A stretch of DNA of 64,000 bases from Candidatus Shapirobacteria bacterium (GTDB lineage: Bacteria; Patescibacteriota; Microgenomatia; UBA12405), in the NCBI GenBank assembly GCA_041658125.1, contig JBBAAS010000001.1:15917-79916 (forward strand), read 5' to 3'. Made by a program: the position numbers and the translations under genes. A model generated the notes under the pieces. The model ran no database searches, was not told where the DNA came from, and saw nothing but the letters and a program-made list of their open reading frames with translations. Shown one piece after another: positions 26,791 through 63,471 of the stretch. Each line of letters starts with the position of its first letter. The stretch's first letter is position 1.

Positions 26791-26792
26791 AT

Positions 26793-37031: not shown

Positions 37032-37033
37032 AG

Positions 37034-37867: not shown

Positions 37868-39583
37868 ATGATGAATATGTCACAGAAGAAAAACAAACGA
37901 TTAAGAAATCAGGTAATTGAAGTAACAAGCCAATTGAGTAAAGTTACTTTTGGCGTCAGAGATATTTTAAAAGGAAATTGGAAGTTTTTGGTTTTAGTTT
38001 GTTTGGGGATAATAGCGGTTTATTTGAATTCTTTGAAAGGTGATTTTGTATCAGATGATTATGCTTCGATTACTCAAAATCCAAATATCTACGACACAAT
38101 GCATTACTTGAAGTCAATGAGTCTTCCGGGGATGGTGACTCATATTATTGCTAAGTTATTTGGAATTGGAAGTTCTTTGCCTTATCACGCGGCTAGCTTA
38201 GTTTTGTATTTGGCAATTTGTGTTTTAGCTTTTATTTTTATGGTAACAGTGGCAGGAAAACAAATTGCCAGGATTAGCGCCGTACTGTTTGCCTTTCATC
38301 CGATACACGTAGAAGCGGTTTCTTGGATATCCGGCAGACCATATTTATTGACAACCTTTTTGGTGTTAATATGCTTAATTTCGATGATTCTGTATATGGG
38401 TGGACGAAAGAGAAAGAAATATTTGTATGTAGTTTTTATTAGTATGGTTTTAAACTTTATTAATGATCCGTTCAGGGGTTTTGCTTTGTATCTCTTGGTA
38501 ATGTTAATATTTTTCAGCTTCGGGGATAAGTTTTTTCCAGGAATTAAATTAGGGAGATTTTTTTTATATTTTATGGTTGTTTTGATAGTGACGTTTGCGA
38601 TAGTGTGGCCACTCGCCAAAACCAGGATTTCAGTGGTTAATGGGGGATATAACGCAAGTGAAAGTGTTTTTTATCAGCCGTGGTTTCAATATCCGACAGC
38701 GATAACAAAATATTTGCAGTTGTTATTTATTCCGGTAGATTTGACCCTGTATCACACTTTATTTATTTTGCCCTTGTGGCTTAATTGGGCGGTGATTATT
38801 TTGTATTTGGGATCATTAGTTTATTTTTGGTTTAAAAATAAACTGGTCTTTTTTGCTTTGGCTTTTGTCTTTGTAGCTTCTTCACCCTCGATGTTACCGG
38901 TTAAAGTAAGCTGGTTAGTAGCGGAAAGATATGTGTTTTTTGGATCGGTAGGATTTTGCTTATTGTTAGGAATAGTAATAAACAATATTTTTGTGAAAAA
39001 TAAGTGGGTGGGGATATCGATTTTAGGATTGGTGGCTGGGATATATTTTTTTAGAACATATTTTAGAAACGTGGATTGGCAAACTAATCACAAGTTATGG
39101 GTGAGTACCTGTCAGGTGTCTCCTAATAGTCACAATGCCTGGAATAATATCGGAGATGATTATGACAAATTGGGACAATATGATAATGCCATAAAAGGGT
39201 TTACACAGTCAACGGTAGTAAAGCCAAATTATGCTGATGCTTATCATAATCGGGCAAATATATTTTTTAAAACAGGAAGATTGGACTTGGCTAGAGATAG
39301 TTATAATACGGCTTTGGGTTATTCTTCGGGGTTGTTTCAGACTTATATGAGCTTGATACAGATAGACTTAATGGAAAAAAGGGCTGATTTGGCGATACAG
39401 GATAGTCAAAAGTTATTGAATTTGCAACCGAATAATCCGCAAGCGTGGTATGTGACCGGAGTGGTTTTTGCCAATGTGGGAGATAGGGAAAATGCTAAAA
39501 TGGCGTTTAAAAATGCTTTGACAATTATGCCTGGGTTTACTCAAGCACAACAAGCGTTAATACAACTGTTGGGAGGAAGTTAA
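37868..39583 (+). CDS. GT-C-like membrane protein with C-terminal TPR repeats (TMTC/PMT_2-like)
   Basis: 571 aa. ~10 TM. First loop LKGDFVSDDYASITQNPNI (DD-Y acidic motif seen in TMTC/PMT-type GT-C proteins). C-terminal ~150 aa with 3-4 TPR motifs (AWNNIGDDYDKLGQYDNAIKGF ... ADAYHNRANIFFKTGRLDLARDSY ...). Confidence 0.6.
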   Translation: MMNMSQKKNKRLRNQVIEVTSQLSKVTFGVRDILKGNWKFLVLVCLGIIAVYLNSLKGDFVSDDYASITQNPNIYDTMHYLKSMSLPGMVTHIIAKLFGIGSSLPYHAASLVLYLAICVLAFIFMVTVAGKQIARISAVLFAFHPIHVEAVSWISGRPYLLTTFLVLICLISMILYMGGRKRKKYLYVVFISMVLNFINDPFRGFALYLLVMLIFFSFGDKFFPGIKLGRFFLYFMVVLIVTFAIVWPLAKTRISVVNGGYNASESVFYQPWFQYPTAITKYLQLLFIPVDLTLYHTLFILPLWLNWAVIILYLGSLVYFWFKNKLVFFALAFVFVASSPSMLPVKVSWLVAERYVFFGSVGFCLLLGIVINNIFVKNKWVGISILGLVAGIYFFRTYFRNVDWQTNHKLWVSTCQVSPNSHNAWNNIGDDYDKLGQYDNAIKGFTQSTVVKPNYADAYHNRANIFFKTGRLDLARDSYNTALGYSSGLFQTYMSLIQIDLMEKRADLAIQDSQKLLNLQPNNPQAWYVTGVVFANVGDRENAKMAFKNALTIMPGFTQAQQALIQLLGGS

Positions 39584-49305: not shown

Positions 49306-50266
49306 TTTTTAATGTAGCGGAAAAATAGACAAAAAAACTAATTAAACAGGCAAGCGGATGAAAAAACCAGGCAAAATCGGGTTTTTTTAGATAACCACGG
49401 AATGAGTCAAAAATGGGAGGAATAAGAGTGATGGTGTAAAGACTAAATTTAACGGTGGCAGAGCGATTGTTTTTTTGCCAATTGAATTGTCTAATGTTTT
49501 GAAATTGATAAAAGTCGACTATACGGCGTTTTTGTTTACGAATAAACTTTTTGATCGATGATTCGCAAAAGGTATGAATAATACCGACTTTAACTTTGGC
49601 AAAATAGAGAGGTTGATGAGTTTGATGAATGACAGAAGTAATAATATCGATATCAAAAAAATAATCACCCTTAAAATAATTTTTAAGAAAATCGTGGCGA
49701 AAAATGGCACCATTAGCACCAATTGTAGGAAGCAGTTCGTTTGGATTAAGTTTGATTTTAAGATAATTAGGAAAGTCTTGAGTTTCAATTTTTAAACCGG
49801 TCCACTTGCCGGACAGATAACTATATCGATCGTAAATACCGGAGATGTAAGCGTAAGGATCATTGGCACCGATCAGAGCAGAATATCTTTCAGTAAAGCC
49901 AGCATCGCGACGATAAGTAAAACTGATCGGTTCACTACCAATAATTTGAGGGTCTTTTTGAAGAGGCAAAAGCATTTTTTTAAGCCAATTTTTTGAAGGT
50001 AAAAGATTATCAGAGTCAAGGAAAACGAGATATTTGCCTTTGGCATGGCGAATGCCAACGGCCTTGCCGGCTTCTCCGGTTTTTAGCGGGTTTTTAAAAA
50101 TTTTGGCCTTGAAGTTTTTAGCGACAATTAGAGTGTTGTCGGTAGAACCACCGTCGGCAATAATAATTTCGTAATCTTTAATGGTTTGAAGAGAAATTGA
50201 TTGAAGACAATCTTTTAGGACTTTTCCGGCATTGAGGGTGGGAGTGATGAAACTAACTAAAATCAT
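49256..50266 (-). CDS. Glycosyltransferase family 2 (GT-A)
   Basis: 336 aa. ILVSFITPTLNAGKVLKDCLQSI ... EIIIADGGSTDNT. Confidence 0.85.
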   Translation of the reverse strand: MILVSFITPTLNAGKVLKDCLQSISLQTIKDYEIIIADGGSTDNTLIVAKNFKAKIFKNPLKTGEAGKAVGIRHAKGKYLVFLDSDNLLPSKNWLKKMLLPLQKDPQIIGSEPISFTYRRDAGFTERYSALIGANDPYAYISGIYDRYSYLSGKWTGLKIETQDFPNYLKIKLNPNELLPTIGANGAIFRHDFLKNYFKGDYFFDIDIITSVIHQTHQPLYFAKVKVGIIHTFCESSIKKFIRKQKRRIVDFYQFQNIRQFNWQKNNRSATVKFSLYTITLIPPIFDSFRGYLKKPDFAWFFHPLACLISFFVYFSATLKNVIGQKNIIDRSHWQQ

Positions 50267-51722
50267 TTAATTTTTTAAAAAATTTAATAGTGTACCGGAA
50301 AAGATGCTGAACGTCCTCAAAAGATCGGATGTGAATTATTTGGTTAAAAAGAAACTTGGGAGTAATGATGCCGTTAAAAAGTTGCTGAATGAGTTTTTTT
50401 TGATTGGTGGAAGAAAGCCGGGATTTTATAACCGGTTGGCTCATGTCATATTTGTCCCAGTCAGTTGTTTTTAACAGTTTGTTCCGGCGACAATAGTTAA
50501 AAAGCGGAGTGCCCGGGTAAGGAATAACGATGGTGGCTTGAATACTGTCAGCAAGACCACGGCGGAAAAAGTTTTTAACAACTTCAAAAGTTTGATAGGT
50601 ATCATTTTGAGTTTCCCAGGGATAGCCAATCATGGCGGTTAAGTGGGGGAAAAGGTTAGCTTTTTTAGCCATAGTTAGGTCCTGAAGAGCGTTGCCAACC
50701 CGATTATTTTTATTGATTTTGTCGAGAGTTTTTTGGTTGGCGGATTCAAAACCATATAGAAGCATTCGAAAGCCGGCTTGAGCCATTAGCTGGTATTGTG
50801 ATTGATTAAGAACGCCGAAACGCATATTGCAACTGATGGTAACTTTTTGGTGGAGTTTTTTTTGAATAATCAGGTGGCAAAAGTTTTCAAGCCACTCCCC
50901 TACCGGAAAAGTGCCGGAGTCATCAAAAATTTCTTTGACCTTAAAGTTGTTGACTAAATTTTCGATTTCGGCAACGGCGCGGTTAGGAGAGAAGCAACGG
51001 TATTGTTTGCCCGGATAAAGGGTGGTCCAGGAGCAAAAAGTACATTGACCCCACCAACAGTCGCGGGAGAACATGGTATAAGCTCCGGGAGTATATTTAA
51101 AATTGCTGTTACGGACAGAATATAAATGCCATTTGGTTAACTGGCGATCGATTAGGGGAAGTGGGTCCAGAGAATGATGTTTTAAGGAAAAACGACCAGA
51201 ATTGGTAATGATATTGTTTTTTTTGAAATAAAAACCTGGTTCTAGTTTTTTGCCATGGGTTAGATGGCGGCAGAGGTTCAGAAGCATAAAGTCGTAGTCG
51301 CCGCCGGTTATAACGAAATCCACAGGACATTTTTTTAATGACTCTGTGGGGAGAGCGGTAACATGATCACCCATAAGAACGATCACAGCTTGGGGTAAAA
51401 GTTTTTTAATTTCGGTAATAAGATGCCAATGTTTTTTGATGACCGGGGTTTTGGTTTCAATGGCAATGAGTGATGGGTTGTTTTCTAACAAGCGTGATAA
51501 CCATGCCGAATAATTTAATTTTTCGGCGATAGCGTCATCCCAAAAAACGGTGTAACCATTTTGAGATAACAAAGTAGCGGCAGAAGCAGGAATAACAGGG
51601 TAAATAATGTTGTCGGTATGAGTCCATTGAAACTGACGATTTTGAGATAGAAACGGAGACCCTTTAGCCGAGGATAAGGGTGGATAGGAAATAGAGACAC
51701 TGAAGTTTTTAGCCGCCGACAT
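50253..51722 (-). CDS. Cobalamin-binding-domain radical SAM enzyme with non-canonical CX4CX2C cluster motif
   Basis: 489 aa. N-terminal Rossmann-like domain (GYTVFWDDA ... IAIETKTP ... VLMGDH). Cluster motif SRDCWWGQCTFCSW at ~51033-51059. Confidence 0.7.
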   Translation of the reverse strand: MSAAKNFSVSISYPPLSSAKGSPFLSQNRQFQWTHTDNIIYPVIPASAATLLSQNGYTVFWDDAIAEKLNYSAWLSRLLENNPSLIAIETKTPVIKKHWHLITEIKKLLPQAVIVLMGDHVTALPTESLKKCPVDFVITGGDYDFMLLNLCRHLTHGKKLEPGFYFKKNNIITNSGRFSLKHHSLDPLPLIDRQLTKWHLYSVRNSNFKYTPGAYTMFSRDCWWGQCTFCSWTTLYPGKQYRCFSPNRAVAEIENLVNNFKVKEIFDDSGTFPVGEWLENFCHLIIQKKLHQKVTISCNMRFGVLNQSQYQLMAQAGFRMLLYGFESANQKTLDKINKNNRVGNALQDLTMAKKANLFPHLTAMIGYPWETQNDTYQTFEVVKNFFRRGLADSIQATIVIPYPGTPLFNYCRRNKLLKTTDWDKYDMSQPVIKSRLSSTNQKKLIQQLFNGIITPKFLFNQIIHIRSFEDVQHLFRYTIKFFKKLNDFS

Positions 51723-52695
51723 AGTTACCTGTCATTTTATCAGTTTGGTGGGGTTTAAAGATGAGGTTGGGTTTAAAGAAGCCAATTGGAAACAAAAGAC
51801 CATAATAAAGATGAGTTAAAGGGATTGTAATAATTGCCAAAAAAGAGGGAAATAATTGATTTTGTGTTATTAAAAATTTTATAAAAGTTAATATAAGTAA
51901 AATTAAATACAGAAATATGGGTAATAAAATGAGTAAGTTGTGATAACCAAGAAGCGTGGCAAAAGTTAAAAAAACAGAATAAAAGAAAAACACACTGGGA
52001 ATAAGATAACCAAAACGAAAGCTGGTTTGAGGGAAAATTTTGGCGAATTGACCACGGTGAAGGGCATAGCGACTGATTTGTTGGAGGTGAGGTAAAATAA
52101 CTGCCCGGCGATGGTGGTAAACGACAACAGAAGGGTGGTAAAGTATTTTTTTCTTTAACTTTTGGGTAAGATCAAGACAAAGGATGGTGTCTTCTCCGGG
52201 CCAATAATTAGTTTTGAAGCCTTTTATCTTAAAAAAATCATTTTTTTTGACAATGAGATTGACGGACGGATAGTCGTCAACGAAACGAGCTGCCCCGATA
52301 CTGTTGCGGTAAGCTCCGGCTCCCCCACTACCTAGCCAAGAAGACCAGACCAGACCGGAAGCTTTTTGATATGGAGTATCGGTTGGGGGGATTAAGCAAG
52401 GACCGCAAACGGCGGCAATATTGGAATCTAATAGAAGTAATTCGGCGTTTTTTAACCAATTTGCATCGGGATAAGAGTCATCGTCTAAAAATGCAAGATA
52501 TTTTCCTTTGGCTAGCTTGACTCCGAGATTTCTTTTGACAGCCGGATTGGGAGTTTTGGAGATTTTATCGGTGATTACCAGGACCTCAAACTTATTTTCG
52601 GTTTGACTTTCAAGATGTCGGAGAGTTTCCGTTAAATAGACAGTCGGCTGACGAACAGGAATAATGATGGAAAAAAGAATTTTTTTAGCCGACAT
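51709..52695 (-). CDS. Glycosyltransferase family 2 (GT-A) with C-terminal TM segment
   Basis: 328 aa. LFSIIIPVRQPTVYLTETLRHL ... EVLVITD ... LAFLDDDSYPDANWL. Confidence 0.7.
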   Translation of the reverse strand: MSAKKILFSIIIPVRQPTVYLTETLRHLESQTENKFEVLVITDKISKTPNPAVKRNLGVKLAKGKYLAFLDDDSYPDANWLKNAELLLLDSNIAAVCGPCLIPPTDTPYQKASGLVWSSWLGSGGAGAYRNSIGAARFVDDYPSVNLIVKKNDFFKIKGFKTNYWPGEDTILCLDLTQKLKKKILYHPSVVVYHHRRAVILPHLQQISRYALHRGQFAKIFPQTSFRFGYLIPSVFFFYSVFLTFATLLGYHNLLILLPIFLYLILLILTFIKFLITQNQLFPSFLAIITIPLTHLYYGLLFPIGFFKPNLIFKPHQTDKMTGNYVGG

Positions 52696-53488
52696 TGACC
52701 CTCATATCCAGATCTTTATCGTAGACCCATTTACGTTTGTTTTTGTCGTCGTAATATTTTTTAATACGAAGACGATAGAAGACGGATAGAGCATCAACTA
52801 ATGCCCTATAAATGACTTTGAAACCGACAGCATGAGTAAAACCGGTGTGGTCGTAGTTGAGTTTTATGGGGGCCTCGTAAATTCTTTTAAAACCAAGATA
52901 GTTAGAGACTGATAAGATTTCAAGGTCAAAAGCATAATTTTTGACCAAAAGACGGGGAAGAACTTTTATCAGAACCTGGCGCTTAAATATTTTTAAGCCG
53001 GCTTGAGTGTCACGGACATTGATTCCAAGAAGATATTTGGCGACAATTTGAGCACAAAAACTGATAATTTGACGGTGAAAAGGATAATTAACGATAGAGG
53101 CCGGATGACGTTTACTGGCGACAATAATATCGGCGTTGTACCACTCCATGTGCTCCAAAACCATAGAAATGGCATTGGGGTCTATTTCCATGCCGGAGTC
53201 AATAAAAGCAACGTAGTCGCCTTTGGTGTGGGCCATGCCATAACGAACGGCGTAACCCTTCCCGTGGTTGAGATGATAGCCAATAATTTTTGTTTTAGGA
53301 ATTTTGGCTTTCTTTAAAAATTGGTATGATTTGTCGACACTGATGCCATCGATAACGCAAATTATTTCGTAACCGTAACGGATTTGTTGAAGAGTATTTT
53401 GAATGTTTTTAATATCGGCAACGATTGTTTGTTCCTGTTTATAAACAGGAACAATGACGGAAAGAAAATGGGGTTCAGAGCTAGACAT
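52685..53488 (-). CDS. Glycosyltransferase family 2 (GT-A), DPM1-like soluble type
   Basis: 267 aa. LSVIVPVYKQEQTIVADIKNI ... EIICVIDGISVDKS ... VAFIDSGMEIDP. Confidence 0.8.
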   Translation of the reverse strand: MSSSEPHFLSVIVPVYKQEQTIVADIKNIQNTLQQIRYGYEIICVIDGISVDKSYQFLKKAKIPKTKIIGYHLNHGKGYAVRYGMAHTKGDYVAFIDSGMEIDPNAISMVLEHMEWYNADIIVASKRHPASIVNYPFHRQIISFCAQIVAKYLLGINVRDTQAGLKIFKRQVLIKVLPRLLVKNYAFDLEILSVSNYLGFKRIYEAPIKLNYDHTGFTHAVGFKVIYRALVDALSVFYRLRIKKYYDDKNKRKWVYDKDLDMRVNVG

Positions 53489-54566
53489 TGAAAAGAGCTA
53501 ATTTGTAAACAGCAAGAGTTTGAAGTGCAGTTTTTTGCCAATCAAAAAATTTGGCTCTTTTTAGTCCTAAAGAACGATATTTTTCCAAAAGATTTTTGTC
53601 AGACCAAAGCTTTTTTAAAGATAATTTAAGATCAGCAATAGAATGTGGGTCAAACATCACACCGTTTTGGTCCATAATTTCGTCAAGACAACTTTCTTGG
53701 CCGTAAACTACCGGACAGCCGGTTTTCATAGCTTCGACCAGAGGTAGACCAAAACCTTCGGCAAAGGACGGTTGACAATAAATAGTGGCTAAGTTATAAA
53801 TGCCGACAAGTTCTTGAGTAGAAACAAAACCGGTGAGAATAATAGAATCTGGACGTAAAGAGGCTTGTTTTTGTAACCAAATTAAATCGTGATTCCACGG
53901 GTGAGAAATAATCTCTTTTTGATTAGCGGCAGAACCAGCTATAGCCAATGGAAATTTTAAGTCAAGGCAGGCGCTTACTAGAGTGGGTAAATTTTTATTC
54001 CAGTTAACATCACCCACATATAAGATAAATTTGTCGGGAAGATGGTAACGATTTTTGAGACTAAGTAGATCTTTTTGATTATTAAGTGGTTTGAAATCGG
54101 CGTTGGATGATAAATAGGTTACATAAATTTTGTCCGTTGGATAACCAGTAAGATTGTTGATAATAAATTTTGAACAATGACTATCGGTAATAAGATATTT
54201 GGCTTTATTCAGCCGGTATTTTTGAATCAGCCACTTGATTTCACCTTTTATGCCAACCGGATAGTGGGATTTAAATTGTCGGGGAATGAGATCGTGGACG
54301 GTGACTATAAAAGGAGTTTTTGAACGATAAGGTAAGGTTAAAAAAAATGGATCGAAATAGGGGTAGTGGATTAATTGATAATTGTTTGGATTAAAATGAT
54401 TGGTGATTAGGTCAATTTGCCAATTTAAATATTCGGGATTAGTTTTGGTCTCGTGTTGAAGAGCGTCGACCAAGTGCCTGGTGTAGTAACCGACACCACG
54501 AGTGGAATTTTGATCAGACAGGGGCGAAACATCAATGGCGATTTTAACTTTTTTGAATAGAACCAT
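53481..54566 (-). CDS. Glycosyltransferase family 4 (GT-B)
   Basis: 361 aa. KIAIDVSPLSDQNSTRGVGYYTRHLVDAL ... IYCQPSFAEGFGLPLVEAMKTGCPVVYGQES. Confidence 0.8.
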   Translation of the reverse strand: MVLFKKVKIAIDVSPLSDQNSTRGVGYYTRHLVDALQHETKTNPEYLNWQIDLITNHFNPNNYQLIHYPYFDPFFLTLPYRSKTPFIVTVHDLIPRQFKSHYPVGIKGEIKWLIQKYRLNKAKYLITDSHCSKFIINNLTGYPTDKIYVTYLSSNADFKPLNNQKDLLSLKNRYHLPDKFILYVGDVNWNKNLPTLVSACLDLKFPLAIAGSAANQKEIISHPWNHDLIWLQKQASLRPDSIILTGFVSTQELVGIYNLATIYCQPSFAEGFGLPLVEAMKTGCPVVYGQESCLDEIMDQNGVMFDPHSIADLKLSLKKLWSDKNLLEKYRSLGLKRAKFFDWQKTALQTLAVYKLALFNV

Positions 54567-55323
54567 AATATTTTATGTAGGCAGAACGATGACTAATGGC
54601 TGAATAATAGGCAAAAACAAATCCAGAAAAACCATCGACAAAACCGAGATGTCGAAGATATATACTAAAAAAAGTAGAGAATGGTAGCCATAAGAAGAAT
54701 TTAAAAAAACTAACAAAGTTAATTGGGGTGTGTTTTTCCTGCAGATCATCGGCCATAAGTGAGGTGTAGCGGTTGTTGCGAGTAAGGTAACGTTCAAAGT
54801 TTAAATCGGCATAATGGAGAAGATGGCCTGAAAGTTGGCCGATTTTGCCATCGACAACGGCTTGTTCGTGAACAGACTGACAGGGGAGATAAGCTTGGCC
54901 ATTTTTATAAAAACGGATGGTTGGGTCGGGATATTGGCCTCCTTTGGTTAAAAATCGATTGAGAAAAAAGTTTTTACGACGAATCCAAAAACCATTTTCT
55001 GAAACGGACTCCGGTTTTGTTTGAAGTATGGTTAAAATTTCTTTTTGAAGATCGTTGTCGACAACCTCATCGGCATCAAGCTGAAGAATCCAATCACTTT
55101 GGCAATTTTTAATGGCCAGCTCCTTGTTGTGATGAAACATCGGCTGATTGGGAGCAGAGATAATTTTAGTTTTTTTATATTTTTTGGCAAGATTAACTGT
55201 TTGGTCTTGGGATTGACCGTCAACGATGACAATTTCATCGACCCAGTCGACAACAGCATCGAGACTTTTTTTGATATTAGCTTCTTCGTTATAAGTGGCT
55301 ATGGCTATTGAGATAGTGGTCAT
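54544..55323 (-). CDS. Glycosyltransferase family 2 (GT-A)
   Basis: 259 aa. ISIAIATYNEEANIKKSLDAVVDWVDEIVIVDGQSQDQT ... LQLDADEVV. Confidence 0.85.
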   Translation of the reverse strand: MTTISIAIATYNEEANIKKSLDAVVDWVDEIVIVDGQSQDQTVNLAKKYKKTKIISAPNQPMFHHNKELAIKNCQSDWILQLDADEVVDNDLQKEILTILQTKPESVSENGFWIRRKNFFLNRFLTKGGQYPDPTIRFYKNGQAYLPCQSVHEQAVVDGKIGQLSGHLLHYADLNFERYLTRNNRYTSLMADDLQEKHTPINFVSFFKFFLWLPFSTFFSIYLRHLGFVDGFSGFVFAYYSAISHRSAYIKYYGSIQKS

Positions 55324-56954
55324 TTTGTATATATTCTAAAGCTTTCAGCGGTAGAAGGGAAATCGGATGAATCAATAACTAACGAGTTTGGAGGAATTAC
55401 ATCAGGAATATGGAAAGTAATATTATCAATTTGGTTGACTGTTGAAAAACCAAATTTGTCGGGAGGAGTTAATTTAATTTGGGACTGAATAAGTTTTGGT
55501 GGATATTTGGAGAAGAATAAATATAAGATATATGGTTGGTCATACTTATCAGTCAGGAAAATGTTTTGATATTTGCTTTTGCTGGTATTAATAAAAGGTA
55601 TAATTTCTGAAAATCCCCTATTCCAGGCAAAAGAGTATCTTGAAGGAGAGTGAACAAAATAGGCATCCAGATAAAAAAGGAAACTAAAAATGTACAACGG
55701 AATTATAAGATAGATTAATTTAGGAATTAAGGTAATTGAGTAATAAAGGCCGAAGGCAATAAAGATAGATAAGGGAATAACTAAGGGAAGTGAGCGGAGA
55801 GCTGATGGCGCTTGGAAGGTTAAGGAGGAAGCGAGGGGGGCGATAAAAAGTAAAGAAAACAAGAGTGGTTTGAGATGAGGATACTTTGATTTTAAGACGA
55901 AAATAATTCCCAAAAGTAAAAATGGTAGTTCGAATAAATAAAATTGACCCATACCGGGTGTTTTGGACCGGGGAACGTCGTCACCTTTTAAAAACAAGAA
56001 ATTGTAGTCAAAATGAGAGAAATATTTTTGGGCCCATGAAATGGTATAAAGAACTCTTTTGTTGTGAATTAGCCGGTTTATTAGTAGGGTGTTGCCATGT
56101 TGATTTAAGAGCTCTTCGGCGCGGGCGATGGGTCCGTAATCGGCGGTTAAACCAATGCCACCAAAACGGGTAGCTCCACCATTATTAATAAAAGAAGTTA
56201 AGACAGGAATAGTTAGAGCGATAGTAAGGAAGAGCGCTAGAAGGGAAGATTTAAAAGAATTTAGAAATATTTTAAAATTAAAGATAATTAAAATTAAAAA
56301 TAATACCGGAATTATGATTCGGGCAGAATGGTAGATGTAGAGTGAGGCGACCAGAGGTAAAGGGAAGAGAAATAGAAAATAAAGTTTACGATTTATGATG
56401 AAAGAATAAAACCAATAAAGGCCGAGGACAATAAAAAATAAGGCAGAACAAGATTCCCAGGCTCCACGGGAGAAGTGAATGTGCCAAGGAGAGAGAGAAA
56501 GTGCGATAGCGCTATAGAGCGATAGTGCGATAGACGAAGAAAGTAATAGAACAAATTTATATAAAACCAAAATGGTTAAAATTGAAAAAATTAAATTTGG
56601 AAGACGGATAGCTAGCGGAGTTAGGCCAAAAGTAGCGATGAAAGGCAGAGATAAATAAACGTAGCCGCCGGGTTTGTAATCACCAAAAGATTTGAAGTGA
56701 AGCGGCCAACTAGCACCATGTTCGTCTTTGCCAGTTTGTAAAAGTGAATAGGCGTTATAGCCAAGGGCGGCTTCGTCGGGATTAAGAGATGGGAGAGAGT
56801 TGACGTGGTAAAAGCGAATCAGGGTAGCTAAAAGAAGGATGAAAAAAATTAATTTTGATTTAATTAGTTTGGTAACCATAGAAGGTAGTAGTGTTATTAA
56901 CAGGTGAGAGTGGGGTGAGAAGGGATAGATCAATCCCTTGCCGGATGGCATCAT
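55320..56954 (-). CDS. PMT_2/ArnT-like GT-C membrane glycosyltransferase (GT39/GT83-like), paralog 1 of 3
   Basis: 544 aa. LNPDEAALGYNAYSLLQTGKDEHGASWPLHFKSFGDYKPGGYVYLSLPF is the ArnT/PMT first-loop signature. The start is probably the internal MVTKLIK (~56879). Confidence 0.75.
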   Translation of the reverse strand: MMPSGKGLIYPFSPHSHLLITLLPSMVTKLIKSKLIFFILLLATLIRFYHVNSLPSLNPDEAALGYNAYSLLQTGKDEHGASWPLHFKSFGDYKPGGYVYLSLPFIATFGLTPLAIRLPNLIFSILTILVLYKFVLLLSSSIALSLYSAIALSLSPWHIHFSRGAWESCSALFFIVLGLYWFYSFIINRKLYFLFLFPLPLVASLYIYHSARIIIPVLFLILIIFNFKIFLNSFKSSLLALFLTIALTIPVLTSFINNGGATRFGGIGLTADYGPIARAEELLNQHGNTLLINRLIHNKRVLYTISWAQKYFSHFDYNFLFLKGDDVPRSKTPGMGQFYLFELPFLLLGIIFVLKSKYPHLKPLLFSLLFIAPLASSLTFQAPSALRSLPLVIPLSIFIAFGLYYSITLIPKLIYLIIPLYIFSFLFYLDAYFVHSPSRYSFAWNRGFSEIIPFINTSKSKYQNIFLTDKYDQPYILYLFFSKYPPKLIQSQIKLTPPDKFGFSTVNQIDNITFHIPDVIPPNSLVIDSSDFPSTAESFRIYTK

Positions 56955-58428
56955 CGTAGGAAAAAATCATTAGTTGATGAGGTTTTAATTTGGCACCATT
57001 AAAGTTGGGGGATTCAAAATGAATATTGTCGATTTGAGTGACTTTACCGGTATCCAAACCGTTAACTACTAAATTGGCTTGAGACTGATATTTGGCTGGG
57101 TCGTATTGAGAGAAAAAGAGATAAAAAATATAAGGTTGGCCGTAAAAATCTGAAAAATAAATATCAGTTTTATCTTTAGAATTGGCTAATAAATAATTTG
57201 TGGCTTGCTGATATCCATAAAGGTGTTCGGGTGGTTTATTTTTAACAAAATGATTGAGATATAGATCAGAATAATAAATAAAGCTAAGTATATAAACAAA
57301 AAATATAAATATCTTTAATTTAGATGATGTAATTAGTTTTAAACCTGAAGCGATAAAGAAAATTAAAGGAATAGAAAGTGACATATCACGAACCGGTTGA
57401 ATTGAATCGCGGGTGAGAGCGGATGCTAAGGGGGCGGTTAACAGCCAAAAAAGAAAAAAACAAGTTAAGGGCGTAAGCCGTGATGACAGCTTTTTAAACA
57501 AACCCAAATACAAAAAAATTAATGATGGGTAGAGTATAACGCCGATGTATGGGGTAGAATGTCGAGCTACCTGCCAGTCACCTTCGAAAACCAGAAATCT
57601 TGGAGAAAAATTATTAAAATATCGCTCCCAAAAACCACGAAGAAAAAAGAATACCTGATTATGAAAAACGAGGTAGTCCGATCGGCTAGATTCAGCGACT
57701 ATTTGATTAACTTCGGTTTGATTTTGAGAATACGACCAGAGGCTAAAAACCTGAAGGCGGTTACTATCGTTTTGAGTTAGTAAACCAACGATTACCGGAA
57801 GGGCAATGATAAACAATGGAAGGGAAAATTTTAAGAAAAAGTTTTTTAGTGAGGGACGAAAAATAATTAGTAAGGCAAGAATTATTAAAGGGGACATAAT
57901 TTTGCCGCCTTGATAGGTGAAGAGGGTTAAACCAAAAACAAGGGATGACCAAAAATATTTTTGACGGACAAAAAAATAGGAAGCCAAAATTAATTCAAAG
58001 GTAAGAATATTAGTTTCCCAGGCACCCCGGGAAAAGAGAATATTAAATGGATTAAATGCTAAAAGAAGAGCCGAAATTAGCGCTAATTTTTTAGATCCAG
58101 GGGAAATGGCGGTGATTAACAAAAATAGAAATAAAGGGGTAAGAGAGCCAATGATGATCGATGGAAGCCTAACGGCCAGAGGGGTGAGGCCGAGATCGGC
58201 CACAAAAGGAATGGTAAGGTAAATATAAAACCCGGGTTTATAGTCACCAAACGATTTAAAAATAAAGGGCAATCTAACTCCATATTCATCTTTACCGGTT
58301 TTAATAATAGAATAAGCATTGTAACCAATTGAGGCTTCGTCCCAAAGTAGTGGGACGTAATTCGTTTGGTAGATTCGGACAATAAAAGCCAAAAGGGTAA
58401 TGATAATTAGCCAGTATTTACTAGTCAT
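56860..58428 (-). CDS. PMT_2/ArnT-like GT-C membrane glycosyltransferase, paralog 2 of 3
   Basis: 522 aa. LWDEASIGYNAYSIIKTGKDEYGVRLPFIFKSFGDYKPGFYIYLTIPF. Confidence 0.75.
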   Translation of the reverse strand: MTSKYWLIIITLLAFIVRIYQTNYVPLLWDEASIGYNAYSIIKTGKDEYGVRLPFIFKSFGDYKPGFYIYLTIPFVADLGLTPLAVRLPSIIIGSLTPLFLFLLITAISPGSKKLALISALLLAFNPFNILFSRGAWETNILTFELILASYFFVRQKYFWSSLVFGLTLFTYQGGKIMSPLIILALLIIFRPSLKNFFLKFSLPLFIIALPVIVGLLTQNDSNRLQVFSLWSYSQNQTEVNQIVAESSRSDYLVFHNQVFFFLRGFWERYFNNFSPRFLVFEGDWQVARHSTPYIGVILYPSLIFLYLGLFKKLSSRLTPLTCFFLFWLLTAPLASALTRDSIQPVRDMSLSIPLIFFIASGLKLITSSKLKIFIFFVYILSFIYYSDLYLNHFVKNKPPEHLYGYQQATNYLLANSKDKTDIYFSDFYGQPYIFYLFFSQYDPAKYQSQANLVVNGLDTGKVTQIDNIHFESPNFNGAKLKPHQLMIFSYDDAIRQGIDLSLLTPLSPVNNTTTFYGYQTN

Positions 58429-60010
58429 AGGAGATTATCTCAAAAGCAGGGGTATTATCCAAAAAATTAACGGTATGAAGAATTTTGGAATTTGGTTTAG
58501 GATAGTTGCCATGACTGGTGATGAGAAGGGTATTTTTGGAAGGAGTAAGGGACTTAATGTCCCAATCATTAACAAATTTAAATTTATCGAAAGCATCAAC
58601 CCAGTACCAGTCGGCGTGAAAATCCCATTTTAGGTTAGTATCAGTCAGATATTTTTGAGGAGACCAGGGCCAATAGAAAAGAACAAATTCATGAGGTTCA
58701 CCATATTTTTTGGTAAAGATGATTTGCTTATAGTTAGGATAAAGCGGTTTAACAAACTCGATAGCCTGTTGATAACCGTACTGCCAAGTTTGAGACATGG
58801 ATGTGTTGTATTGAAGATATGTTTTTGAATAAAAAAGAAGCTGAAAAAGAGAGATTAATAAAACTAAAATTAAGACTATTTTGGAGCGGAGGAAACTTAG
58901 ACCGAGGACTATAAAAATGATATAAAAAGGAACAGCACTGGTGGCCCGAATTGAAGGAAAATCACCCATGGTTAGAGCTGAGGGTAAAAGACAAATTAAA
59001 AACATTACCAGTAAATAGCGATATTTTTTAAAAGCAACAAATAGGCCAAGATAAAAAAACGGTAAAAATATAGAAAAGATCAATCCGGTTGAAGGTGGAT
59101 TAAACTGGTAATTTTGGGAACCACGGAAAAAGATGGGTAAGGGATTTAGAAGGTCAAGATAATTTACAGTAAATTGCTGGCTAAAATAGGTAATTTTATT
59201 ATTAACAAGACGGTTTAAAAATTGGGGGCCGGAAAATAGTCGGCGATTTTCATTGATGAGATTGATTGAATTGGGGTTGATGATGCCCACCCAACGATTT
59301 CGGGCTTGAGATTCAGGAGAGAATAAATTGAGGACATTGGGAATGGCGAGAAGAAGAAAGACAATGAGTGATAGAATAACTATTCGGGAATCGATTTTTT
59401 TAATATTTTTTTGGTAAAACCAAAACAAAAATGGTGGTAGAATAGGAACTATTATCCGGGTGTTGTGATAAGCATATAGTGAGATTCCAAAAGATAGTAA
59501 GGCTAAAATGAGTAGAAAATGTTTTTTAAAAGAACTGAGAAATAACCATAAACCAAGCATTAAAAAAAATAGAGATAGGTTTGATTGAAAAACTGCTCGG
59601 GAAGGAAAAACTAACCAAGGGGAAATGGCAAATAAAAACATGGATAAAAGGTTAAAAATAGAGTTTGAGAAGAGTATTTGGACTAAGAAATAGGCCACTA
59701 TTACAGTCAGGGTACCAATAATAGCGTGAGGTAGGCGGATAGCAAACGCATTGAGGCCAAAGACATTAATAAAGGGGATGGTTAGATATAAGTTGGCGGC
59801 AGTCGGATAATCACCGTAGGCTCGGAAGTTAAATAACGGATACGAGACACCCCATTGATCTTTACCAGTTTGGAAAATGGAATAGGCGTTGTAACCATGG
59901 GAAACTTCATCCCAATTTAGAGATGAGGGAATTGAACCGAGTTCTGTAAAACGAAGAAAAACAGCTAGAAATAGTATTAGCCAAAAAAATAATTTAGTGT
60001 TTTTTTTCAC
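58421..60010 (-). CDS. PMT_2/ArnT-like GT-C membrane glycosyltransferase, paralog 3 of 3
   Basis: 529 aa. LNWDEVSHGYNAYSIFQTGKDQWGVSYPLFNFRAYGDYPTAANLYLTIPF. Confidence 0.75.
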   Translation of the reverse strand: MKKNTKLFFWLILFLAVFLRFTELGSIPSSLNWDEVSHGYNAYSIFQTGKDQWGVSYPLFNFRAYGDYPTAANLYLTIPFINVFGLNAFAIRLPHAIIGTLTVIVAYFLVQILFSNSIFNLLSMFLFAISPWLVFPSRAVFQSNLSLFFLMLGLWLFLSSFKKHFLLILALLSFGISLYAYHNTRIIVPILPPFLFWFYQKNIKKIDSRIVILSLIVFLLLAIPNVLNLFSPESQARNRWVGIINPNSINLINENRRLFSGPQFLNRLVNNKITYFSQQFTVNYLDLLNPLPIFFRGSQNYQFNPPSTGLIFSIFLPFFYLGLFVAFKKYRYLLVMFLICLLPSALTMGDFPSIRATSAVPFYIIFIVLGLSFLRSKIVLILVLLISLFQLLFYSKTYLQYNTSMSQTWQYGYQQAIEFVKPLYPNYKQIIFTKKYGEPHEFVLFYWPWSPQKYLTDTNLKWDFHADWYWVDAFDKFKFVNDWDIKSLTPSKNTLLITSHGNYPKPNSKILHTVNFLDNTPAFEIISYD

Positions 60011-61616
60011 GAAAGATACTTAATAATATAAATATTATAAAAGAAACGGTGGAAATTGTATTGGCGATAAAGCGAAGCGGGGTATTTTCGAAACTAAGAT
60101 AAAAAGAATGAGTACCGGAAGAGAGATTAAGAGTAATTAGACCGAGATCGTGATCTACGACATAAGGGGACGGAATATTGTCAACCTTTAGGGAAAAATT
60201 GGGAAAATAGACTACTGGCAAGTTAATAAAAGCGTTATCGGAGGAGACAATAATTTTGCCGGTGGCGGAATGGCTGTTTTTAGAAAAGCTGACGATTTGG
60301 GCTGTACCGGCGATAACTTCGGGACCTTTGGCAAAATAATTGGGAAAGTTTTTACTAAAGACTGGCCAATAATCTTTAAGACCGGCATCGCTTTGGGCGA
60401 TGACATTGGCAGGAGATAATTTCTGTTGATCGGTTAAATAGGGAAACCAAATGTCTTCTTTGAAAAAAGAGAAATTTAATAAAAGCACTAGAAATAGTAA
60501 CGACAGAACGGTCAAATAACGGTATTTTTTGAAAAATTTAATTTGCAACAAAAACCCAGAGATAAGGGCAAATGAAAAAACAGCCGGGGCTAGAAAGCGC
60601 CAAGGGAATTGGTAAAAAGGTAATAATGAAATATGCTGCCAAATAAAGGTTGATTTGTTGTGGGTGAGAAATAAACTAAAAAGACCAACAAAGAAAAAAG
60701 TAATTATTAAGTATTTGTTTTTAATTTTAGTTTTGTAATTGAGAATTAGATAGAAAATAATAATTAATGGAATGAACCATTGAAGATAACCCAGTTGAAA
60801 AGACATATCATCAATCGGCCCCCAAAGAGAGGCACCAAAACCCCAATCGTTGTGGTTGATAAACAACTGTTTTAGGGTGACAAAGTGAATAATGTAGTAA
60901 AAATAACCCTGAGTCATGGTGGCAACTGTGGTAAATTGTTTTTCAAAAAAAGCCGGAAGTACAAAGAAGACCGACAAAAGAAATCCGAGGAATGAGTATT
61001 TTATAAATGAAATAATTTTGGAGCGAAAAAATATCAAATGAGTTAAGATTAAAAGAGGTGCAACATAAAGAAGGGTTAAGTTGTGGGATAAGGCGAGGAA
61101 GGCAAGAAATAAGGCATAAAGTAAGTATTTTTTCTTGATGGAAAAATAAAATACAAAAGGTAATAAAGCTAGACCGAGATTTTCAGCTAAAGCACCACGA
61201 ACATAGCTGTTGATAGCTTGATAGGGTGCCAAAGAAAATAGAATTGCAGAAACTAGTCCCCCGCCAGGACCAAAAAAAAGCGATGATAATAAAAATATAC
61301 CAACAGGACGGATAAATGACGTGAGTATGAAAACTAGTTTGATACTATCAATATAGGGAAAGCCGGCAAAATGAAAGATTTCTCCGATTGCGTATGGAAG
61401 TGGAGAATAAAAATTGAATAAAGGATAACCGTAGCCAAATCCTCCATCAGGGACATAACGGCAAGGGATTTGACCATCATGAACACAAATGTCTAATTGT
61501 TGCAGACGAAAAACATGCATATCGTCTTGCATGGAAAAATAACCCGGTCTAAACAATCGGTAGCTACCGATTAAACCAAGAGCAAAAATAATAAAAAGTA
61601 TAAATTTTTTATTCAT
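59994..61616 (-). CDS. Polytopic membrane protein, putative GT-C-like (YfhO/ArnT-like) glycosyltransferase
   Basis: 540 aa. N-terminal TM, then an acidic loop YFSMQDDMHVFRLQQLDICVHDGQIPCRYVPDGGFGYGYPLFNFYSPLPY, followed by ~11 TM helices and a C-terminal soluble domain. Confidence 0.45.
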   Translation of the reverse strand: MNKKFILFIIFALGLIGSYRLFRPGYFSMQDDMHVFRLQQLDICVHDGQIPCRYVPDGGFGYGYPLFNFYSPLPYAIGEIFHFAGFPYIDSIKLVFILTSFIRPVGIFLLSSLFFGPGGGLVSAILFSLAPYQAINSYVRGALAENLGLALLPFVFYFSIKKKYLLYALFLAFLALSHNLTLLYVAPLLILTHLIFFRSKIISFIKYSFLGFLLSVFFVLPAFFEKQFTTVATMTQGYFYYIIHFVTLKQLFINHNDWGFGASLWGPIDDMSFQLGYLQWFIPLIIIFYLILNYKTKIKNKYLIITFFFVGLFSLFLTHNKSTFIWQHISLLPFYQFPWRFLAPAVFSFALISGFLLQIKFFKKYRYLTVLSLLFLVLLLNFSFFKEDIWFPYLTDQQKLSPANVIAQSDAGLKDYWPVFSKNFPNYFAKGPEVIAGTAQIVSFSKNSHSATGKIIVSSDNAFINLPVVYFPNFSLKVDNIPSPYVVDHDLGLITLNLSSGTHSFYLSFENTPLRFIANTISTVSFIIFILLSIFREKKH

Positions 61617-61667: not shown

Positions 61668-62249
61668 TCACAAAAATAAAAATAAAGTAAATAGTAAAAG
61701 TAGATAAGTCGTTTTATAAATAAAGGATATTTGAGTAAGTTGAGAAGTTAAACGATGAAAATTGAACTTCAGACGATTAGCAAAGCCTGATTGGTAATAA
61801 GTTGAATTAAAGACAGGTTGACCGTGATTGTCGGTCAATAAATATAGAGAGTTTGGATCGGGATTGTCGGTACTTATATTTATCTGGACGATTCCTTCGT
61901 TTTTAGTGGGTAGCGGTTTATATTTCAAAACTAAATTTGAAGGGTCGCCAATATTAGATCCAGAAAAAGATAAAACTTTTTCATCAGTACCAGAGGAAAT
62001 TTTAAAATGAATTAAATTGTTATTTAAAATTTGGGGATTTTTAAGAGTGAAAGTAAGGGAGTTTAAATTGGTATTAGTAGTAGTGACTTCAAAATTATAA
62101 GTATGACCGATATCTAAGGAATTAAAAAATGTTGGGTTTGATTGATTGGAAATTGAGTGACGGGAGGTAATAAATAAGGTAGGTAAAAGAATTAATAGTA
62201 AAAACCCCAAAAGGATAAAACTAATGGCGATTATTTTTTTCATGGGCAA
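61668..62249 (-). CDS. Hypothetical secreted/membrane-anchored protein
   Basis: 193 aa. N-terminal signal-anchor (IIAISFILLGFLLLILLPTLF), Asn/Thr/Ser-rich beta-rich middle, C-terminal hydrophobic tail. Confidence 0.35.
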   Translation of the reverse strand: MPMKKIIAISFILLGFLLLILLPTLFITSRHSISNQSNPTFFNSLDIGHTYNFEVTTTNTNLNSLTFTLKNPQILNNNLIHFKISSGTDEKVLSFSGSNIGDPSNLVLKYKPLPTKNEGIVQINISTDNPDPNSLYLLTDNHGQPVFNSTYYQSGFANRLKFNFHRLTSQLTQISFIYKTTYLLLLFTLFLFL

Positions 62250-63471
62250 AAAAGATAATAAAGGACGTTAAAAATGTTAGATATTGAAAAATTATTTGAA
62301 ATTTTAGCGGATCCTGCATGAGACGGTAGCGAATAAGATTGTAGGGAGAAGTGACTTTGACAAATAAAGGATCGATGGGGATTAAATGTCCCCAGGTTAA
62401 ATAATTGTCATCGATAAGCAATACTCTTAGTAATAGCGGCAAAAACAGAAGATGACCCAGTAGCAACTTTTTGGGGGATGAGGCAAAGGCGAGCAGGTAA
62501 AAAGGGTAAAACCAAAGTAGCCACTGGGAATGAAAATTTACCAGGCAGACAAATAATAAGAAAATAAAAGTAATGTTTTTAAATATTGTTGAAGGTGAAT
62601 ATCTCCATGAATAAAGAAAATATAAGATGTAAATAATGGGGAAAACAGGTATAGAGAATAATTTAAACTCAATAATTTTTTGAGTTAGACCGGAACCAAT
62701 AAAAGACCGAATGAATGAAGAGTCGTTGATAAATGGTAAGACGCTAAATAGCAGAGGTATAAGAGAAATAAATGAGTATTTGATAAGTTTGGAAAAATTT
62801 GATCGGGTAGAAATAAGAAAGAAAGGTAAAAGTAGCAGGGAATAAAATTTTAAGGCAATTGATAGTCCAAAAATGAAAAACGATAAAGAAGGACGTTGAC
62901 GTTTTAAAAGATAAAAGGCTAAAAAAGTAAAGAAAACCGGAAGAATATCAAAATTTTGTAAAACATATATTAAGTAAAAAACTAAAGGGTTAAATAGCCA
63001 GAGTAGGTAATAATTTTTTTTGGGATAAAGACGGTAAATAAGTAAGCCTATTAGTGTATCTAAAAATAAATAGGGAAGTTTCAGGAGAAATAAAAATACT
63101 GGTAAATTGGCATAATTATTTTGATGATCACTCCAATCATTGATCCATGTTGAAAAATTTGGCGGAGCAATTTTTTGGACGATAGCGGAATATGTGCCGA
63201 AAGTAAAATAGGTTAAAGGTAAATAATTAAAAGTATCTTGGTATGGGAGATTTGTTTTATTTTGGTCAATATATTGATAAATATTGGTTACACCACGGGA
63301 TAAATATTGAAAATGAAAATATTGGCTTTTAATATCAGGATGATAGAACCAGGGTAATAAGAGTAGTTTGATAATCAAGGACAAGACGAAGAGTTGTTTA
63401 GCGGTTTTGGTCACGGAAAAGATGAATTTTTGATAAAAAGCGATACCACTTTTGGCCAGACCATATGACAA
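62221..63471 (-). CDS. Polytopic membrane protein, possible GT-C/DUF2029-like glycosyltransferase
   Basis: 416 aa, ~10 TM. No firm motif. Weak resemblance to GT87/PIG-M-like integral-membrane mannosyltransferases. Confidence 0.35.
   Translation of the reverse strand: MSYGLAKSGIAFYQKFIFSVTKTAKQLFVLSLIIKLLLLPWFYHPDIKSQYFHFQYLSRGVTNIYQYIDQNKTNLPYQDTFNYLPLTYFTFGTYSAIVQKIAPPNFSTWINDWSDHQNNYANLPVFLFLLKLPYLFLDTLIGLLIYRLYPKKNYYLLWLFNPLVFYLIYVLQNFDILPVFFTFLAFYLLKRQRPSLSFFIFGLSIALKFYSLLLLPFFLISTRSNFSKLIKYSFISLIPLLFSVLPFINDSSFIRSFIGSGLTQKIIEFKLFSIPVFPIIYILYFLYSWRYSPSTIFKNITFIFLLFVCLVNFHSQWLLWFYPFYLLAFASSPKKLLLGHLLFLPLLLRVLLIDDNYLTWGHLIPIDPLFVKVTSPYNLIRYRLMQDPLKFQIIFQYLTFLTSFIIFFAHEKNNRH

Follow-up and report, generated by a model that had tools for sequence, protein, structure and literature searches.

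We analyzed a window of 64,000 nucleotides (64 kb) from an ultra-small bacterium, Candidatus Shapirobacteria (Microgenomates, Candidate Phyla Radiation (CPR)), in which a minus-strand run at 55320-61616 consists of four successive open reading frames (ORFs), here named P1, P2, P3 and Y4. The array is real and conserved in relatives, and its probable role is to assemble or decorate a glycan of the cell surface, on the outer side of the membrane. We put at about 0.6 the probability that P1-P3, Y4 and a nearby GT87-like enzyme form the membrane arm of a Microgenomates operon for extracytoplasmic glycosylation with polyprenyl-phosphate sugars, with a glycopolymer or lipoglycan as the acceptor. Nearly all coding capacity of the window is given to glycan biosynthesis, including about 20 cytoplasmic GT2 or GT4 transferases, sugar-nucleotide enzymes, several methyltransferases, a Wzy_C-like protein and a TagH/Wzt-like ATP-binding cassette (ABC) exporter. 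P2 and Y4 are 100% identical to the NCBI proteins WC596_03195 and WC596_03205 of a metagenome-assembled genome (MAG). The Pfam and NCBIfam family scan covered 57 window ORFs, namely all 56 of at least 150 aa and the ORF at 26793-27143, and the coordinates of the features are collected in Table 1.

Three GT-C paralogs with a shared first-loop signature

The initial annotation had read P1-P3 as three PMT/ArnT-like GT-C paralogs that share a signature in the first loop, and both parts of this reading hold. P1 and P2 share 35.5% protein identity (BLASTP, E 2e-69), and P3 is about 31% identical to each of them (31.1% and 30.8%), the weakest E-value among the three pairs being 2e-46. At the DNA level, the three genes repeat one another only in the 83 nt that encode the motif; these copies are 64-73% identical and lie 1564 and 1570 bp apart. 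Assembly duplication, which identity above 95% would have indicated, is therefore excluded. Immediately behind the first transmembrane (TM) helix, all three proteins carry the motif DE..GYNAYS..TGKD..G...GDY, which reads LNPDEAALGYNAYSLLQTGKDEHG..FKSFGDYKP in P1 (in shorter form LNPDEAALGYNAYS..TGKDEHG..FGDY), LLWDEASIGYNAYSIIKTGKDEYG..FKSFGDYKP in P2 and LNWDEVSHGYNAYSIFQTGKDQWG..FRAYGDYPT in P3 (in shorter form LNWDEVSHGYNAYS..TGKDQWG..YGDY). Across 36 family members, D30, E31, G35, Y36, N37, S40, T44, D47, G61 and D62 (P2 numbering) are invariant, and every copy in the array is an intact ORF that retains the invariant motif residues. The family comprises 5,010 cluster representatives at 50% identity (E<=1e-30).

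P3 passed the Pfam thresholds of both PMT_2 (PF13231, 36.2 bits versus 26.1) and PMT (PF02366, 28.9 bits versus 22.7). P2 reached 21.8 bits for PMT_2, under the 26.1 threshold, and P1, which has no PMT_2 or PMT match in Pfam, is linked to P2 and P3 through BLASTP. Within the family alignment, PMT_2 was matched by 27 of the 36 sequences and PMT by 19 (E<=0.01). No MIR or TPR domain was found in P1-P3 with Pfam. The single NCBIfam match of P2, an N-terminal one to TIGR03663/Agl23, scored 40 bits versus a cutoff of 126, and membership was rejected. Judged by their sequences, P1-P3 are ancient, non-redundant paralogs of an uncharacterised PMT_2-type GT-C subfamily, for which the extended GYNAYS..TGKD..GDY signature is specific. 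A literature search combining CPR, Patescibacteria or Microgenomates with GT-C or glycosyltransferase found no paper on the P1-P3 proteins.

An AlphaFold (AF2) model of P2, built on the 36-sequence alignment, reached a predicted local distance difference test (pLDDT) score of 86 and a predicted TM-score (pTM) of 0.87. When the model was compared with the PDB using Foldseek, the 26 best matches were all GT-C enzymes, including STT3, ArnT (5ezm, TM-score 0.56), ALG12 (0.58/0.62), ALG9, AftD, Pmt4, AftB and Emb; Pmt4 stood at rank 15 with a TM-score of 0.44, behind STT3, ArnT, ALG12 and ALG9. The top PDB matches of the Y4 model (pLDDT 85) were likewise all GT-C enzymes (ArnT, STT3, AftA and ALG9). 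On these predicted models, P2 and Y4 are members of the GT-C superfamily.

The P2 model contains 11 TM helices, with the N terminus inside and the C terminus outside. Its outside parts are the motif-bearing first extracytoplasmic loop (EL1, residues 22-82, 61 residues), the TM7-TM8 loop (219-301, 83 residues) and a C-terminal domain of alpha/beta type (about 125 residues). Members of the PMT/TMTC clan have a layout of 11 TM helices with a critical loop between TM7 and TM8 (PMC7801869). In the short loops of P2, Lys plus Arg number 5 inside and 1 outside, and Asp plus Glu number 0 and 1, respectively. The 11-TM model, the loop charges and the fold homology support the prediction that the DE loop of P1-P3 is extracytoplasmic, rather than cytoplasmic as would count against a GT-C role. 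In the P2 model, the acidic pair D30/E31 lies immediately before the first loop helix. The model is of low confidence in two stretches, one in each long loop: 59-63 (FGDYK) and 285-291 (part of the conserved GDWQ..RHS segment). GT-C enzymes have mobile substrate loops at the positions of EL1 and the TM7-TM8 loop.

Partner genes and gene order in Microgenomates

The initial annotation had added to the three paralogs a related 540-aa polytopic protein with an acidic QDDMHVFR loop, and the loop itself is confirmed. In Y4, SMQDDMHVFRL lies just behind TM1, the family keeps D31 without exception and D32 almost always, and in the models both residues sit just ahead of the first loop helix, in the same place as D30/E31 of P2. 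The relationship holds at the level of the GT-C fold, but Y4 is not an ordinary relative of P1-P3: BLASTP gave no match, and the comparison of family profiles with hhalign gave a probability of 31%, by which close kinship was ruled out. Among Y4 homologs (48-75% identical), 26 of 34 matched PF10131 (PTPS_related) and 15 of 34 matched PF09586 (YfhO); Y4 itself matches neither at E<=0.01 and is assigned via these homologs. Ahead of the final TM helix, the model places an extracytoplasmic beta-sandwich that resembles accessory domains of glycoside hydrolases (Foldseek). A helix parse of Y4 gave an inconsistent topology, in which one 41-residue helix is probably two, and was not used.

The array is larger than the four genes first described. 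Two genes upstream of Y4 lies the GT87/PIG-M-like gene, whose product scores 22.8 bits for Pfam GT87 versus a cutoff of 25. GT87 was matched by 10 of its 12 orthologs (best E 1.7e-9) and PIG-M by 2, the ortholog profile matched GPI mannosyltransferase I (PDB 9wno, E 3.9e-6), and H44-P-D46 in loop 1 is invariant. Directly downstream of this gene, in at least 10 loci, lies the gene of the 193-aa bitopic protein, which has TM segments at its N and C termini and an outside domain of about 146 aa rich in Ser, Thr and Asn, with no family match in Pfam or NCBIfam. One run thus holds five GT-C genes (P1, P2, P3, Y4 and the GT87-like gene) of three families, and a sixth GT-C gene, a further PMT_2 gene of the same genome, lies immediately outside the window. 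The overlaps along Y4-P3-P2-P1-GT2 measure 17 bp (59994-60010), 8 bp (58421-58428), 20 bp and 4 bp, as is typical of translationally coupled genes. The initial annotation had given a range of 8-95 bp, of which the 8-bp overlap stands; the 95-bp value is a start-codon artefact of the longest ORF. P1 is taken to start at MVTKLIKSK (ATG at 56879), because its orthologs start there and an independent gene call gives 519 aa, and this start yields the 20-bp overlap.

When one genome per species was scanned, at least 578 stretches were seen to encode relatives, and 80 loci were fetched; positions were counted in the 66 loci with a P1-GT2 junction. P1-type genes occupy position -1 in 66 of 66 loci, P2-type genes position -2 in 63 of 63 and P3-type genes position -3 in 51 of 56. 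At position -4, a YfhO-like gene of the Y4 type is found in 23 of 41 loci and a further P3-like paralog in 17 of 41, and at position -5 a distant P1-like paralog is found in 28 of 32, with GT-C runs of up to seven genes. The order P3-P2-P1-GT2-GT4-(Dpm1/GtrB-like GT2)-GT2-(radical S-adenosylmethionine (SAM) enzyme) recurs in more than 60 species-level Microgenomates genomes, and the order of P1-P3 is also found in independent assemblies. The downstream block, GT2-GT4-(Dpm1-like GT2)-(GT2 with TM region)-(B12 radical SAM)-GT2, is as constant as the order of the paralogs, and its most conserved gene is the Dpm1-like GT2 (63-74% identical). Across genomes, orthologs of P1, P2 and P3 are 50-64% identical, compared with 31-36% between paralogs, so that each forms a separate orthogroup, and position-specific variants of the motif are kept (e.g., PDEAALGYNAYS..DEHG, WDEASIGYNAYS..DEYG and WDE(I/V)SHGYNAYS..DQWG). 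The higher identity of orthologs and the position-specific motifs indicate that the triplication predates the Shapirobacteria/Woesebacteria split and that the copies are non-redundant.

In divergent Microgenomates loci (L068, L072, L077 and L084; e.g., L077:15297-17698), a PIG-V-like GT-C (PF04188) and a Wzx-type flippase (PF01943/PF13440) are inserted between the GT4 and the Dpm1-like GT2. Two more polytopic families of about 430 aa, without a Pfam match, flank the array in many genomes (e.g., L006:3955-5235(-), L009:3725-5107(-), L010:3827-5110(+) and L065:1332-2636(+)); their members start with ..YPPTEEQ.. and ..YHPDLxNHLDWG.., and the HPD loop motif of the second family resembles the one in the GT87-like gene. 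Many contigs with the operon (L009, L011, L014 and many others; L041; L080) are publicly titled "uncultured Gammaproteobacteria", "Candidatus Methanoperedens sp." or "Clostridia bacterium", and are probably mislabelled or mis-binned MAG contigs.

Donor supply, proposed pathway and alternatives

Two GT2 genes of the window are candidates for lipid-sugar synthases. The closest solved relatives of the one in the conserved block are Pyrococcus dolichol-phosphate mannose synthase (5mlz, E 3e-10), GtrB (5ekp) and ArnC, and its best NCBIfam match, to PgfS, is weak. The other (26059-26790) matches PpgS in NCBIfam with 124 bits, with further matches to AglJ and dolichyl-phosphate hexose transferase; the next gene encodes a DUF2304 protein (E 7e-19). 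Both score under the equivalog cutoffs. The pairing of GT2 and DUF2304 is the arrangement of GacI/GacJ and PpgS/Rv3632, in which a DUF2304 protein (GacJ, Rv3632) stimulates the glycosyltransferase (GacI, PpgS) (bioRxiv 10.1101/180810). In the multi-component scheme of transmembrane glycosylation, a GT-A enzyme makes a C55-P-sugar, a flippase moves the sugar and a GT-C of PMT_2/YfhO type transfers it outside (PMC8035078); as predicted here, a donor-synthase-like GT2 combined with a GT-C set fits this scheme. The two candidate synthases and the separate orthogroup of each paralog also fit the earlier proposal of several donors or several acceptors. Further along the plus strand, a 634-aa ORF with 12 TM helices and no Pfam or NCBIfam match (28650-30554) follows the PpgS-like GT2, the DUF2304 gene and a B12 radical SAM gene (26059-30554 in all) and may be the GT-C of a separate three-component module.

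In the proposed pathway, the cytoplasmic Dpm1/GtrB-like GT2 would load a sugar derived from a nucleotide sugar onto polyprenyl phosphate, the lipid-linked sugar would be flipped over the membrane, and each GT-C would transfer the sugar at the outer face. The transfer would involve the acidic residues D30/E31, D47 and D62 (P2 numbering) and the flexible TM7-TM8 loop, and a polysaccharide or lipoglycan of the cell envelope would most probably be the acceptor. That the gene order is fixed, that the overlaps are short and translationally coupled, and that each orthogroup has its own motif variants suggests that the enzymes of the array act in sequence, each making a different linkage. GT87 enzymes are known from lipomannan-type pathways. 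YfhO-type enzymes are known from teichoic-acid-type pathways (PMC8035078). From the number and family variety of the GT-Cs, the YfhO and GT87 types, the sugar-binding-like domain of Y4, the cytoplasmic transferases and the TagH/Wzt-like exporter, we infer sequential, linkage-specific action on a glycopolymer or lipoglycan; the donor chemistry, like the order of action and the acceptor, is thus proposed from context, next to the fold, paralogy, motif, conserved operon and donor-synthase-like GT2 described above.

Several results weigh against this pathway. P3 alone, the P1-P3 family profile and the Y4 family profile matched nothing among PDB sequences at E<=1. The comparison of E. coli ArnT with the P1-P3 family gave an hhalign probability of 0.8% and 2.4 bits with the hidden Markov model (HMM), and Smith-Waterman alignment was not significant; P3 LNWDEVSHGYNAYS and E. 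coli ArnT LLWQPDETRYAEIS resemble each other by eye. Because the ArnT match is not significant, equating DE with the catalytic Asp of ArnT/PMT draws on position and fold. Neither a GtrA- or Wzx-type flippase (PF04138, PF01943, PF13440) among the 57 scanned ORFs nor a priming phosphoglycosyltransferase in the window was found. The exporter, whose ATPase matches teichoic-acid export (243 bits) and galactan Wzt (186 bits) models of NCBIfam, lies 18 kb from the array and outside the conserved block. Finally, the PMT-type Pfam matches and a TPR-fused neighbour leave room for protein glycosylation. Elsewhere in the window, a solitary LPG_synthase_TM protein (MprF flippase-domain; 12872-13795, plus strand) is encoded beside an NDP-sugar dehydratase/epimerase-family gene (GDP_Man_Dehyd/Epimerase) and an acyltransferase gene; that this protein supplies the missing flippase for lipid-linked sugars is speculative.

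Transfer to protein is one alternative: P1-P3 could be PMT/TMTC-like O-glycosyltransferases acting on Ser/Thr of secreted surface proteins such as S-layer proteins, pilins or adhesins, with separate protein clients per paralog or as members of a hetero-oligomer. The PMT and PMT_2 matches, Pmt4 among the structural matches, the TMTC-like TPR-fused GT-C of the window and the Ser/Thr/Asn-rich bitopic protein conserved within the array all agree with this, as does the weak PgfS match of the block GT2, PgfS being the GT-A of a streptococcal protein O-glycosylation machinery. However, PMT is not the closest fold (Pmt4 at rank 15 and 0.44, compared with 0.56 for ArnT and 0.58 for ALG12), P1-P3 have no MIR or TPR domain, and the surrounding genes encode YfhO-, GT87- and PIG-V-type enzymes together with many cytoplasmic transferases that build glycans. 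The conserved block contains no evident gene for a client protein, and bacterial PMT systems, to our knowledge, have a single enzyme, not 3-8 in a row. We regard this alternative as a minority possibility, perhaps one chance in a few, and the protein O-mannosylation suggested by the initial annotation gains no specific support, since PMT is not the closest fold, no acceptor gene is evident and the context resembles that of a glycopolymer or lipoglycan. P1-P3 are likewise not placed in GT39 PMT proper, given the fold ranking, the lack of a PDB sequence match and the lack of MIR, and on sequence grounds they are not assigned to ArnT (GT83) proper.

Modification of a membrane glycolipid or phospholipid head group by ArnT-like transferases, rather than of a polymer, appears improbable. 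It would agree with ArnT being among the best structural matches of both P2 and Y4, with a weak match of the block GT4 to glycolipid synthases, and with the database names of the homologs ("phospholipid carrier-dependent glycosyltransferase" and "4-amino-4-deoxy-L-arabinose transferase-like"), but these names are generic and the sequence relation to ArnT is not significant. No homologs of the 4-amino-4-deoxy-L-arabinose (Ara4N) pathway genes arnA, arnB and arnD were found among the window ORFs scanned, at least five different GT-C enzymes exceed the needs of head-group modification, and CPR bacteria are generally considered to have no lipid A. An array arising from assembly, or made of duplicated or decaying redundant copies, deserves next to no credence: the tandem arrangement and similar gene lengths alone would favor it, and it is already refuted by protein identities of 31-36%, by DNA similarity confined to 83 nt at 64-73%, by the same order in independent assemblies and more than 60 species-level genomes, and by intact ORFs with invariant motif residues in all copies.

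Within glycopolymer or lipoglycan synthesis, a more elaborate arrangement can be put forward tentatively, in which P3-P2-P1 would form a hetero-oligomer (as in EmbA-EmbB or Pmt1-Pmt2) within a dedicated, deeply conserved Microgenomates line of five to eight GT-Cs from at least three families, functionally comparable to the mycobacterial arabinogalactan/lipoarabinomannan machinery. The complex would build a lineage-specific envelope lipoglycan or wall polysaccharide, possibly with C-methylated sugars from five B12 radical SAM paralogs, and central to an episymbiotic lifestyle.

Window context and comparison with known systems

Table 1. Coordinates of the GT-C array, its conserved block and related features of the window
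Feature	Coordinates	Strand	Basis or remark
P1, PMT_2-type GT-C paralog, 519 aa	55320..56879	-	ATG at 56879; longest ORF reaches 56954
P2, PMT_2-type GT-C paralog, 522 aa	56860..58428	-	Pfam, AF2 model, Foldseek, synteny
P3, PMT_2/PMT-type GT-C paralog, 529 aa, GTG start	58421..60010	-	Pfam, motif, synteny
Y4, GT-C-fold, PTPS_related/YfhO family, 540 aa	59994..61616	-	Homolog Pfam matches, AF2, Foldseek
Bitopic 193-aa protein	61668..62249	-	Hydropathy; partner of GT87-like gene
GT87/PIG-M-like GT-C, 416-aa ORF (called as 397 aa)	62221..63471	-	Ortholog Pfam matches, profile match 9wno
GT2, 259 aa, 4-bp overlap with P1	54544..55323	-	Pfam Glycos_transf_2 E 9.5e-19; conserved downstream of P1
GT4 (GT-B fold) glycosyltransferase, conserved block	53481..54566	-	Pfam Glycos_transf_1 E 3.6e-21; synteny
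Dpm1/GtrB/ArnC-like GT2, 267 aa, candidate polyprenyl-phosphate sugar synthase	52685..53488	-	Closest solved relatives; synteny
GT2 with C-terminal multi-TM region, 328 aa	51709..52695	-	Pfam GT2 and Glyco_trans_2_3; synteny
B12-binding radical SAM enzyme, conserved block	50253..51722	-	Pfam; HpnJ/BchE-like by NCBIfam; synteny
PpgS-like GT2 (26059-26790) and DUF2304 small membrane partner (26793-27143)	26059..27143	+	NCBIfam, Pfam
Distant PMT-type GT-C, 475 aa	4234..5661	-	Pfam PMT, hhalign to array profile
TPR-fused polytopic protein, TMTC-like	37868..39583	+	TPR Pfam matches; motifs read by eye
ABC-2 exporter pair, TagH/Wzt-like ATPase and permease	36300..37834	-	NCBIfam, Pfam ABC2_membrane

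The two GT-C-like genes that had been noted elsewhere in the window are borne out. The distant PMT-type protein scores 30.3 bits for Pfam PMT versus a cutoff of 22.7 and matches the P1-P3 profile in hhalign (92.6%, E 4.6e-7); its DE position reads ADT. The TPR-fused protein has TPR matches in Pfam at residues 404-568, and an FVSDD loop and an AFHPIHVEAV segment were read by eye, the latter resembling the TMTC3 segment LLFAVHPIHT (quoted in PMC7801869). No significant hhalign match to the P1-P3 profile was obtained for this protein, for the GT87-like protein or for the product of 28650-30554. A 471-aa polytopic protein without a family match (15863-17278, minus strand) has a GT-C-like layout of TM1, a 62-aa loop and a 139-aa C-terminal tail; its hhalign probability to the P1-P3 profile is 35%, which is doubtful.

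Five B12-binding radical SAM paralogs, 24-33% identical, are encoded at 24585-26057, 27192-28637, 41498-43060, 43062-44522 and 50253-51722, the last of them inside the conserved block. Their role may be C-methylation or rearrangement of sugars. A further radical SAM gene, of the SPASM type, is located at 46370-47539. On the minus strand, the glycan island also contains an AbiEii-type nucleotidyltransferase toxin gene (17278-18551, Pfam E 4.8e-18) with an upstream 180-aa ORF that is probably its antitoxin, and, at 20035-22603, where local GC skew is near zero, a pair of thiolase and 3-hydroxyacyl-CoA dehydrogenase genes, which may acylate the glycan or may be an insertion. The minus-strand GT2 at 63398-64000, an ORF of 187 aa in the window, continues past the window end, since a different assembly of this genome (L086) gives the gene 281 aa. 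The plus strand of the window has 14683 G and 8601 C, a skew of +0.26, and at third codon positions G greatly exceeds C on this strand irrespective of gene orientation. The coding-strand skew is +0.35 to +0.54 in 12 of 13 plus-strand genes and -0.32 to -0.67 in 43 minus-strand genes, an extreme asymmetry that greatly exceeds what bacteria usually show. The sole clear exception is a plus-strand methyltransferase gene (30551-31354, -0.07 at third positions), which may have been recently inverted or acquired. Should the plus strand be the leading one, lagging-strand genes would make up 77% of the total.

In CPR bacteria, genomes are tiny and the cell envelope is for the most part unknown, yet more than 64 kb here serve glycan synthesis almost wholly. 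The presence of the array in more than 60 species-level genomes, together with about 5,000 family clusters, therefore marks a major, uncharacterised envelope pathway. If the proposed pathway is correct, it would produce a lineage-wide surface glycopolymer that could mediate host attachment, and it would provide a large and diverse set of compact GT-Cs (about 520 aa), recognizable by a clear signature and suited to studies of structure and specificity. The array belongs to a known enzyme class, and the understanding of the GT-C mechanism is unchanged.

ArnT (GT83) and PMT/TMTC (GT39/GT105) share with the P1-P3 family, as modelled here, the GT-C fold, the PMT/PMT_2 Pfam matches, 11-13 TM helices, a long functional loop past TM7 and an outside C-terminal domain. 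DE lies directly behind TM1 in ArnT and PMT, and E. coli ArnT has its acidic pair there in LLWQPDETRYAEIS, as P1-P3 do in their motif. In contrast, identity to solved members is 10-13%, with no significant HMM or hhalign match to ArnT or PDB chains, P1-P3 have no MIR or TPR domain, and the extended GYNAYS..TGKD..GDY signature is their own.

As working models, the Gram-positive multi-component systems and the mycobacterial embCAB/Aft/PimE set come closest. The former include CsbB/GtcA/YfhO, GtlA/GtlB, GacI/GacJ/GacK/GacL and L. lactis CsdAB/CD/EF (PMC8035078; bioRxiv 10.1101/180810). As predicted for the array, these systems have a GT-A that synthesizes a polyprenyl-phosphate sugar and a polytopic GT-C of PMT_2/YfhO type that consumes it outside the membrane, with an acidic GT-C motif in an extracellular loop; one variant pairs the cytoplasmic GT-A with a DUF2304 partner, and several GT-A/GT-C pairs per cell can serve different polymers. 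Unlike the single GT-C of each such system, however, the array has five (six with the gene outside the window and up to seven in relatives), served by one or two candidate donor synthases. The window has no GtrA or Wzx flippase, with Wzx appearing in divergent relatives, and the P1-P3 subfamily, none of whose members is characterised, carries a signature motif of its own.

Mycobacterial embC-embA-embB is a tandem of three GT-C paralogs, and the Emb, Aft, PimE and Mpt GT-Cs, including GT87 enzymes, act sequentially outside the membrane with polyprenyl-phosphate sugars on one envelope glycan. Mycobacterial structures are found among the Foldseek matches of P2 and Y4 (7bvc, 6x0o, 6w98, 9dlh and 8if8). 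Emb (GT53) differs from P1-P3 in having no detectable sequence relation to them (TM-scores 0.32-0.38), and P1-P3 are half the size of Emb and have no counterpart of its carbohydrate-binding C-terminal domains. The mycobacterial set also differs in its genomic setting, since the CPR genome is about 1 Mb (contigs 0.8-1.1 Mb) and no decaprenyl-phospho-arabinose pathway was seen. Emb paralogs can form hetero-complexes, as the title of the EmbA-EmbB entry indicates. Like embCAB, P1-P3 form a tandem GT-C triplet, and the array, like the mycobacterial set, combines several GT-C families, including GT87.

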